Part shown: one piece after another, positions 34,775 to 35,395 of the stretch
Layout of the letters: the number at the start of each line of letters is the position of its first letter
How positions within the stretch are numbered: the first letter of the stretch is position 1
NCBI GenBank assembly: GCA_016719485.1
Contig: JADJZB010000006.1
Coordinates: forward strand, 27,375-91,374
Reading direction: 5' to 3'
From: Holophagales bacterium
GTDB taxonomy: Bacteria; Acidobacteriota; Thermoanaerobaculia; UBA5066
DNA length: 64,000 nt
Notes under the pieces: generated by a model
Database searches by the model: none
What the model was told of the DNA's origin: nothing
Seen by the model: only the letters and a program-made list of their open reading frames with translations
Program-made: the position numbers and the translations under genes

Positions 34775-35395
34775 TCAGCGGCCGACGAGCTTCTGCAGGT
34801 GTTCCGGGTAGCGGGCGCCGTGCAGCGTGACCTTCGCGGAGACTTCGTCGATCTCGCGGAGATCCTCCGGGGAGAGGGTCAGCCCGGCCGCGCCGAGGTT
34901 CTCGCCGAGCCGGTGGAGCTTCGTCGTGCCCGGGATCGGGACGATCCACGGCTTCTGCGCGAGGAGCCAAGCGAGGGCGATTTGCGCGGGCGTCGCCCCC
35001 TTCGCTTCAGCGATCCGCCGCAGCATCTCGACGAACGCGAGGTTCGCCTTGCGCGCTTCGGGCGCGAACCGGGGAACGACGTTGCGAAAGTCGGTCTTGT
35101 CGGAAGTCGTCTTCTCGTCGATCGCGCCCGTGAGGAGGCCTTTCCCGAGCGGGCTGAAGGGGACGAATCCGATCCCCAGCTCCTCGAGCGTCGGAATCAC
35201 CTCCGCCTCGGGCTCTCTCCACCAGAGGGAGTACTCGCTCTGGAGCGCGGTGACGCGCTGGACGGCGTGAGCGCGGCGGATCGTCGCTGGAGCGAGCGGA
35301 CTGGTCGCGCTCGTGGCGGCCCAGGCGCGGGCGTCGTACGAGGTCGATTCGACCTTCGAGGTGCCGGCGGGCTTGGTGTTCGTCGCTTCGGTCAT
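34775..35395 (-). pseudogene. chimeric remnant: aldo/keto reductase C-terminal half fused to an ADH-like N-terminal segment
   Basis: residues from [25 protein letters not shown] to ...[11 protein letters not shown] are ~80% identical to the C-half of AKR 48594..49586; preceding [15 protein letters not shown] matches the N-terminus of ADH 37133..38356 (ARAWGATSATSPIAP); has own RBS gggagg + ATG 35395. Confidence 0.5.

Follow-up and report, generated by a model that had tools for sequence, protein, structure and literature searches.

An open reading frame of 206 codons on the minus strand of the window, by which is meant the whole 64,000-nucleotide stretch of Holophagales DNA that was analyzed, joins the start of an alcohol dehydrogenase (ADH) gene to the 3' part of an aldo/keto reductase (AKR) gene. 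Comparison with relatives makes it very likely that a single deletion within one aldehyde-detoxification cassette, with the ADH, an AraC-family regulator and the AKR all encoded on the same strand, left this ORF as a fusion pseudogene. The data also indicate that the deletion is recent and confined to one Holophagales population. An earlier note on this DNA had described the frame as a chimera of an ADH N-terminus and an AKR C-terminus, a description borne out by two homology blocks. The features of the region are listed below.

34775..35395, minus strand: chimeric ORF of 206 codons plus stop, with an ADH head and an AKR tail
35273..35395, minus strand: ADH-derived 5' coding part, codons 1-41, homologous to cytoplasmic 369-aa zinc-type ADHs
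34775..35284, minus strand: AKR-derived 3' part, AKR residues 162-330 plus stop, homologous to 330-aa AKR13-like reductases
35273..35284, minus strand: junction microhomology ACGATCCGCCGC, encoding T38-I39-R40-R41, with the breakpoint inside it; ADH codons 38-41 and AKR codons 162-165
35405..35410, minus strand: ribosome binding site (RBS) GGGAGG, 9 nt 5' of the ATG at 35395
35484..35471 and 35463..35450, minus strand: two direct repeats TGGCGCGTTnnGC with a 21-bp period, 5' of the chimera
35486..35514, no strand assigned: left boundary of the cassette remnant, where hydrolase-block homology (to L092) ends at 35514 and ADH-upstream homology starts from 35493..35484

The two parts of the reading frame and their junction

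In GenBank the same frame is called from an upstream ATG at 35518 as a 247-residue 'aldo/keto reductase' (MBK9373181.1), and P0123 is identical to this 247-residue ORF of the window. Preference was given to the start at 35395, since the ADH start of L010, an uncultured Holophagales MAG, aligns with ATGACCGAA and the RBS. The RBS is kept as GGGAGG or AGAGG 5' of the ADH genes in L010, L002 and L005, and the GGGAGG of the chimera is inherited from the ADH gene. The 206-residue ORF does have an RBS of its own, as had been noted before. The GenBank label is corrected here to a fusion remnant without catalytic residues.

The head of the chimera is co-linear from Met1 with the cytoplasmic 369-residue ADHs, with the IRR at residues 39-41 in both. 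Residues 1-41 of the L010 ADH mapped to window positions 35395..35273 (tblastn, 63%, E 5e-10), with a match at 26 of the 41 residues and at 19 of the last 20. The best of 120 subfamily members, P0144, matched at 27 of 41 residues and at 21 of the last 22; the subfamily was searched with a query composed of the chimera N-terminus and the body of the L010 ADH, and the N-termini were then ranked. Exactly 41 residues lead up to the IRR in 72 of the 120 members, which makes this the commonest length, and TIRR is the ending in 73%. Furthermore, the homology runs on for about 90 nt upstream, into the ADH promoter/operator. Window positions 35486..35273 aligned with L010 5224..5435, the region upstream of the ADH plus codons 1-41 (blastn, 74% over 215 nt, E 7e-34), and the alignment was reproduced with three other loci, L172, L173 and L174 (74-77% over 216-229 nt, E 1e-32 to 1e-39). 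In L172 it stops at position 476, which is codon 41. The ADH-derived part stops 14 residues short of the CGxCHSD zinc-ligand motif of the relatives, and no Pfam match to ADH_N or ADH_zinc_N was found in the chimera.

The possibility was considered that the ORF is a 5'-truncated AKR gene whose 41 N-terminal codons resemble an ADH by chance. High-GC DNA gives many frames rich in Ala, Ser, Thr and Pro, and many weak tblastn matches were indeed noise. However, the E values of the L010 ADH alignments (5e-10 for the protein, 7e-34 for the 215 nt that include the promoter), their reproduction with three further loci and the modal length of 41 residues to the IRR leave chance resemblance with virtually no probability.

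The AKR similarity starts abruptly at ACGATCCGCCGC. Chimera residues 36-186 matched positions 143-290 of the 291 positions of Pfam family PF00248, Aldo_ket_red (101.6 bits, E 5.6e-29). Protein-database matches consisted of a near-identical 206-residue cluster and full-length AKRs of 330-331 residues; the close AKR homologues are all 325-336 residues long. Full-length AKRs elsewhere (P0002-P0007) are 88-90% identical to the tail in amino acid sequence over 169-170 residues. When compared at the codon level, the amino acid identity of the tail was 89.9% with L006, 88.2% with L002 and 72.8% with the AKR of the window, and the nucleotide identity was 87.9% with L006, 87.3% with L002 and 81.3% with L010. 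Window positions 35285..34772 aligned with L010 8000..8513, AKR codons 162-330 (blastn, 81%), and residues 162-330 of the L010 AKR were recovered on the chimera tail by tblastn as well.

The ADH-type and AKR-type alignments to L010 overlap by 13 nt, at window positions 35285..35273. In a five-way alignment the sequence is ADH-type up to CCAGCG, followed by the shared ACGATCCGCCGC and then by the AKR-type GCTCACGCC. The homology thus switches within T-I-R-R, which agrees with the earlier placement of the join at IRR. ACGATCCGCCGC is exact in the ADH of L172, matches at 11 of 12 positions in the ADHs of L010, L173 and L174, and is exact in every AKR examined (L002, L005-L008, L010 and the window AKR). 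One copy is present at the junction (35284..35273), and the same short sequence occurs at both parental sites in relatives. The distance between the two copies in L010 is 8001 - 5424 = 2,577 bp, a span that comprises ADH codons 42-369, the whole regulator gene (6423..7487) and AKR codons 1-161. Since the ADH and AKR genes read ACGATCCGCCGC in the same phase, a fusion at this sequence had to be in frame, and the open frame by itself is therefore no evidence of selection.

The junction is real and not a misassembly, because several assemblies made separately from one Holophagales population contain it; this answers, indirectly, the earlier note's point that a lack of read support would indicate misassembly. 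One protein cluster holds seven variants of the chimera, namely the exact window sequence and six others with one to several differences; they lie on separate contigs that come from NCBI assemblies (among them that of 'Holophagales bacterium' MBK9373181.1), ENA assemblies and a Logan assembly. Contigs L001, L089, L090 and L091 have the same junction and the same neighbors, in the order Tat-type ADH, cyclophilin-like gene, hydrolase, chimera and convergent small gene, with point substitutions relative to the window. A 12-nt repeat in high-GC paralogues might mislead an assembler that uses short k-mers into joining ADH and AKR reads at the shared 12-mer, and one chimera copy, that of L089, has indels. 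However, the 12-mer is far below assembly k-mer sizes, copies from separate assemblies differ by point substitutions, and the junction is accompanied by the flanking hydrolase and the downstream gene in GCA_035915895.1, in GCA_016705025.1, in the source of MBK9373181.1, in several ENA assemblies and in one Logan assembly. An assembly artifact is accordingly given only the slightest weight.

Two observations were made on these copies. In L089 10124..10760 (GCA_016705025.1), five bases inserted within about 50 nt near the 3' end give the frameshifted 349-residue protein MBK6407160.1. Decay of the gene was considered for this copy (P0122/L089) and rejected, as neighboring genes have 1-nt indels too and the copy lies near the contig end; the indels are probably sequencing errors. 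When the window was compared with L001, the hydrolase, cyclophilin-like and ADH genes (35575..38350) were 94.5-97% identical and the chimera and downstream gene (34140..35395) 99.4-99.8% identical. This strongly mosaic divergence suggests that strains recombined recently, with a boundary of the exchange close to the hydrolase/chimera junction.

The cassette in relatives and the origin of the fusion

On the contigs with the closest AKRs a gene order on one strand is recurrent: the 369-residue ADH, an AraC-family regulator of 342-354 residues, zero to two small genes, the AKR and a CMD-family gene. The same-strand order ADH-AraC-AKR was found in L010, L002-L005, L006 and L173, and L172 is a further relative in which the cytoplasmic ADH precedes, without a change of strand, an AraC-family regulator and a matching AKR. 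In about 15 further loci this type of ADH adjoins the AKR. The Thermoanaerobaculia relative represented by L173 6001..10267 and L174 298..3526 has a 369-residue ADH, a 13-bp gap, an AKR, the AraC gene and a second AKR, the second AKR being closer to the chimera than the first (81% vs. 78% nt).

The region 5' of the chimera retains further elements of the cassette. Downstream of the TGGCGCGTTnnGC repeats, conserved boxes (AATGAC and CCTACCTT) extend to about 35420. In the relatives L002 and L005 the TGGCGCGTTnnGC element lies 5' of the ADH gene and again 5' of the AKR gene; in L006 it lies 5' of the AKR and in L010 5' of the ADH. Its positions in three of these relatives are as follows.

L002, 7592-7613 and 9907-9928: TGGCGCGTTnnGC element
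L005, 4522-4543 and 7382-7403: TGGCGCGTTnnGC element
L010, 5245-5266: TGGCGCGTTnnGC element

The 22-mer ATTGGCGCGTnnnGCnAATGAC is present as a single copy in the window and is exact in nine loci, all of which are cassette loci or chimera-bearing contigs. Judged by its position and geometry, the TGGCGCGTTnnGC pair is most likely the operator of the AraC-family regulator. A tblastn search found no homologue of this regulator in the 64-kb window, indicating that the chimera lies behind an orphaned operator. A sigma-70 promoter scan of 34500..35700, which is uninformative for this phylum, found no promoter and one weak terminator-like hairpin within the operator.

The cassette remnant extends from about 35493 to 34775, as judged from the limits of homology on its two sides. 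Downstream, similarity to the relatives stops at the stop codon of the chimera, and no remnants of the CMD, NmrA or cupin genes follow. On the upstream side lies an alpha/beta-hydrolase gene (window 35514..36762) that is 92% identical at the nucleotide level in L092 1..4415, an activated-sludge contig, where it adjoins a 580-residue transposase-like ORF. Because L092 has nothing but the hydrolase in common with the window, the hydrolase block is itself a mobile or mosaic segment.

The proposed deletion would have started from a cassette that encoded, on one strand, a zinc-type ADH of the cytoplasmic kind, a regulator of the AraC family (in some layouts with small genes as well) and an AKR13-like reductase; the ancestor of the window genome would have had this cassette intact at the site of the chimera. 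Recombination by short homology between the direct repeats ACGATCCGCCGC in the ADH and AKR genes, an illegitimate event of the slippage type and presumably RecA-independent, would have removed ADH codons 42-369, the regulator gene and AKR codons 1-161. The loss would amount to 2,577 bp in the layout of L010 and to more in those of L005, L006 and L173, which have extra genes. What would remain is the promoter/operator and RBS of the ADH with its first 41 codons, start codon included, running directly into the 165 final codons of the AKR. With the regulator gone, the promoter would now be poorly activated, and any protein made would be inactive, lacking the zinc and NAD(P) domains of an ADH as well as the catalytic Asp, Tyr, Lys and His of an AKR.

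Other results bear on how far this history can be reconstructed. Among 80 metagenome loci encoding hydrolase relatives, no intact cassette was found downstream of the hydrolase gene, and in the closest of them, L092, this gene has other, transposase-flanked surroundings; the ancestral state was therefore reconstructed from relatives in other contexts, in which the AKR, ADH and regulator modules are heavily shuffled. The closest ADH 5' regions are just 74-77% identical at the nucleotide level, indicating that the true parent is not among them. Because homology also ends at the stop codon, the deletion model needs either a second, downstream rearrangement with loss of the CMD gene or a shorter cassette. 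The missing pieces (ADH body, AraC gene, N-terminal half of the AKR, CMD, NmrA and cupin genes) are absent from the window except for intact paralogues. The ADH-IRR-AKR architecture was not found elsewhere, neither in 8,000 AKR homologues nor in 80 genome loci, all of which match residues 37/38-206 only. Other short AKR matches were contig-end truncations or unrelated 5' truncations.

The earlier note had derived the chimera from the two paralogues in the window itself, by recombination between the segments bearing the TAT-exported ADH, at about 38.1 kb, and the AKR, at 48.6-49.6 kb, 13 kb away. Both genes are present in the window, and both resemble the chimera. Chimera residues 22-41 matched the window ADH at 38185..38126 at 15 of 20 positions (pairwise E 8e-6), and the head found this gene by tblastn against the window with an E value of 5e-4; the similarity is real family-level homology and not chance. 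The resemblance to the ADH N-terminus had thus been seen correctly, along with nucleotide similarity, which holds in the core, although the residues concerned are 22-36 rather than 23-37. On the AKR side, a gap-free alignment pairs chimera residues 37-206 with residues 161-330 of the AKR at 48594..49586 in the window; 123 of 170 residues are identical (72%, E 2e-90), and the DNA is about 82% identical. The earlier figure of about 80% fits the DNA and does not fit the protein.

However, both parts of the chimera are matched better outside the window. The ADH piece has matches at 19-21 of 20-22 residues elsewhere, together with the first 21 residues and the promoter, and the AKR piece is 88-90% identical to AKRs elsewhere, as compared with 72% for the AKR of the window. 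The window ADH reads IARR in a different register and not TIRR. No Tat leader was found in the members of the 369-residue ADH subfamily or in the chimera, whose N-terminus has no RRxFLK-like motif and no hydrophobic stretch, its sole RR being that of the TIRR of the mature ADH fold. The head therefore did not come from a TAT-exported ADH, since the chimera lacks the leader and is co-linear with the cytoplasmic subfamily. Moreover, neither window gene has been truncated or disrupted, and both are divergent; the chimera and the window AKR are separated by a dS of 0.61, above that between orthologues of different species.

The genomic context of the window AKR leads to the same result. L010 and L008 are syntenic with window positions 41.8-58.3 kb at 83-90% nucleotide identity, with the AKR among the same blocks. 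The L010 AKR comes after the ADH and AraC genes and before a ParA-like gene, whose identity to window 47771..48553 is 88.8%. The window AKR, with its ParA-like gene downstream, is thus orthologous by position to the AKRs of L010 and L008 and represents a separate lineage, so that the chimera is a separate, additional copy. Taken together, these data make the window genes most improbable donors. The ADH and AKR types of the chimera occur in one cassette in relatives, and a local deletion of about 2.6 kb in such a cassette accordingly fits better than recombination across 13 kb.

Several features of the window genes were observed in passing. The AKR at 48594..49586 (minus strand) is unusually divergent as a protein: it shows 9 departures over 100 columns with conservation of 95% or more, where 102 homologues average about 1, and has a dN/dS of 0.37-0.45 as compared with 0.13-0.25 for other pairs. 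Its catalytic tetrad is intact, and the divergence could reflect relaxed or shifted specificity. The AKR/ParA/KatG region consists of syntenic blocks (83-90% nt) that are ordered differently in three Holophagales relatives, and in L010 the ADH-AraC-AKR-ParA block separates two others that adjoin each other in the window (53115 / 53036). The window gene at 37133..38350 (minus strand) encodes a zinc-type NAD(P)-ADH with the N-terminal twin-arginine-like leader YDRREVLKAGAALVAAPLVG, which scored 17.8 bits against the Pfam TAT_signal model (cut-off, 22.7). A 412-residue relative was found in L007 beside an orthologous LysR gene. A Tat-exported ADH with a nicotinamide cofactor would be unusual.

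Functional state of the product

The catalytic tetrad of the AKRs is Asp-Tyr-Lys-His. The tetrad positions were read from the sequence motifs FFDTAEVYG (D52 and Y57), ATKFG (K82) and FYQHRVD (H126), which are present in the window AKR and in perakine reductase. In the full-length window AKR all four residues lie before residue 162, indicating that the chimera lacks all of them. It also lacks the complete (alpha/beta)8 barrel of about 280-330 residues by which an AKR enzyme is recognized. The AlphaFold2 model of the chimera, calculated from a 37-sequence alignment, had a mean pLDDT of 50.6, with residues 1-69 below 50, and contained no strands. The earlier view that a half barrel is unlikely to be functional is supported by the missing tetrad and the poor model. 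The chimera is likely a non-functional remnant, and its product, judged from the residues it has lost, is unlikely to work as an enzyme.

The rate of evolution of the AKR half was compared with that of intact orthologues and no acceleration was found. The dN/dS was 0.13-0.20, as in intact pairs, there were two departures at 100 conserved columns, and relative-rate tests were mostly non-significant. The ORF is intact in all short-read assemblies. These results fit a very recent deletion and fit retained constraint equally well; they were read as a sign that the deletion is too young for decay to have become visible, and not as proof of function. Within the population, accurate assemblies showed five nonsynonymous and two synonymous segregating sites in the chimera, counts too small for significance. 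The nonsynonymous sites include F98S, at a position that is 95% conserved, and the change of E164 to D or G in the LEEN motif. Pairwise pN/pS was about 1 for the chimera, from tiny counts, and 0.2-0.5 for three neighboring genes, or 0.2-0.8 when every comparison is included.

It was also considered that the fusion is retained as a functional small protein, expressed from the ADH promoter and kept by selection, for example as a partial barrel that binds NADPH or a partner or as a complement to some other AKR fragment. In all short-read assemblies the ORF is open and its RBS and start codon are preserved, there is no excess of substitutions at conserved AKR positions, dN/dS is not raised relative to intact orthologues, and the cofactor-binding motifs of the C-terminal part (IPIPGTTK and the LxEN region) are mostly retained. 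However, the four catalytic residues and five of the eight barrel strands, as counted from the positions of the AKR motifs, are missing, the cognate regulator has been deleted and the AlphaFold2 model is of low confidence and without strands. The changes within the population are mostly nonsynonymous and at the conserved sites F98S and E164 D/G, and the architecture is limited to one population, in which the copies sequenced share at least 98% DNA identity. Retention by selection is therefore considered unlikely. A more specific proposal, that the partial barrel (beta6-beta8 plus the cofactor loops) with the N-terminal strand of the ADH is expressed and kept for an acquired use, is very unlikely; such a protein might bind NADPH, titrate a partner or, as a natural fragment, assemble with a second piece of barrel. 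If true, such a fusion would be a natural snapshot of the modularity of barrel fragments.

Comparison with known systems

The fusion pseudogene favored here is a clean natural case of a deletion between short repeats that has fused two unrelated enzyme genes in frame and left an operator without its regulator. It also shows the ADH-AraC-AKR carbonyl-detoxification cassette to be a mobile, often rearranged unit in Acidobacteriota. The event is of a well-known kind and leaves current understanding unchanged; it can serve as a worked example and calls for caution when recombination is deduced from paralogues.

Operators of AraC/XylS activators consist of two direct-repeat half-sites about two helical turns apart, beside the promoter. 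The two TGGCGCGTTnnGC repeats are similar in having a 21-bp period and in lying just 5' of promoter-like boxes, and in relatives they precede the genes that flank an AraC-family gene. In contrast to these operators, the regulator gene is absent from the window, and the site is a predicted one.

The YahK or cinnamyl-alcohol-dehydrogenase-like NADP-dependent ADHs of 369 residues (ADH_N plus ADH_zinc_N) have an N-terminal extension of about 20 residues. The first 41 residues of the chimera, its start codon, RBS and upstream operator are homologous to and co-linear with those of this type. Unlike these enzymes, the chimera has no ADH domain, and it is not of the Tat-leader type of 37133..38350 either.

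Among AKR13-type AKRs the nearest solved structure is that of perakine reductase (3uyi/3v0s), IolS (1pyf) being more distant. Chimera residues 38-206 are homologous to residues 162-330 of the 330-residue members, but the chimera lacks the tetrad and the N-terminal strands and is a fragment rather than a member enzyme.

The closest parallel to the event itself is the set of spontaneous lacI deletions and lacI-lacZ fusions in E. coli, reportedly described by Farabaugh, Albertini and Miller as products of recombination between short direct repeats. As in the lacI deletions, the end points lie in a short repeat, of 12 nt here, of which one copy is kept, with about 2.6 kb lost. As in the lacI-lacZ fusions, the product is an in-frame hybrid ORF under the promoter and RBS of the upstream gene. 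Unlike the lacI cases, this was a natural event in an uncultured Holophagales population, deduced by comparison, and its repeat is a coincidental stretch encoding T-I-R-R in two unrelated enzyme families.
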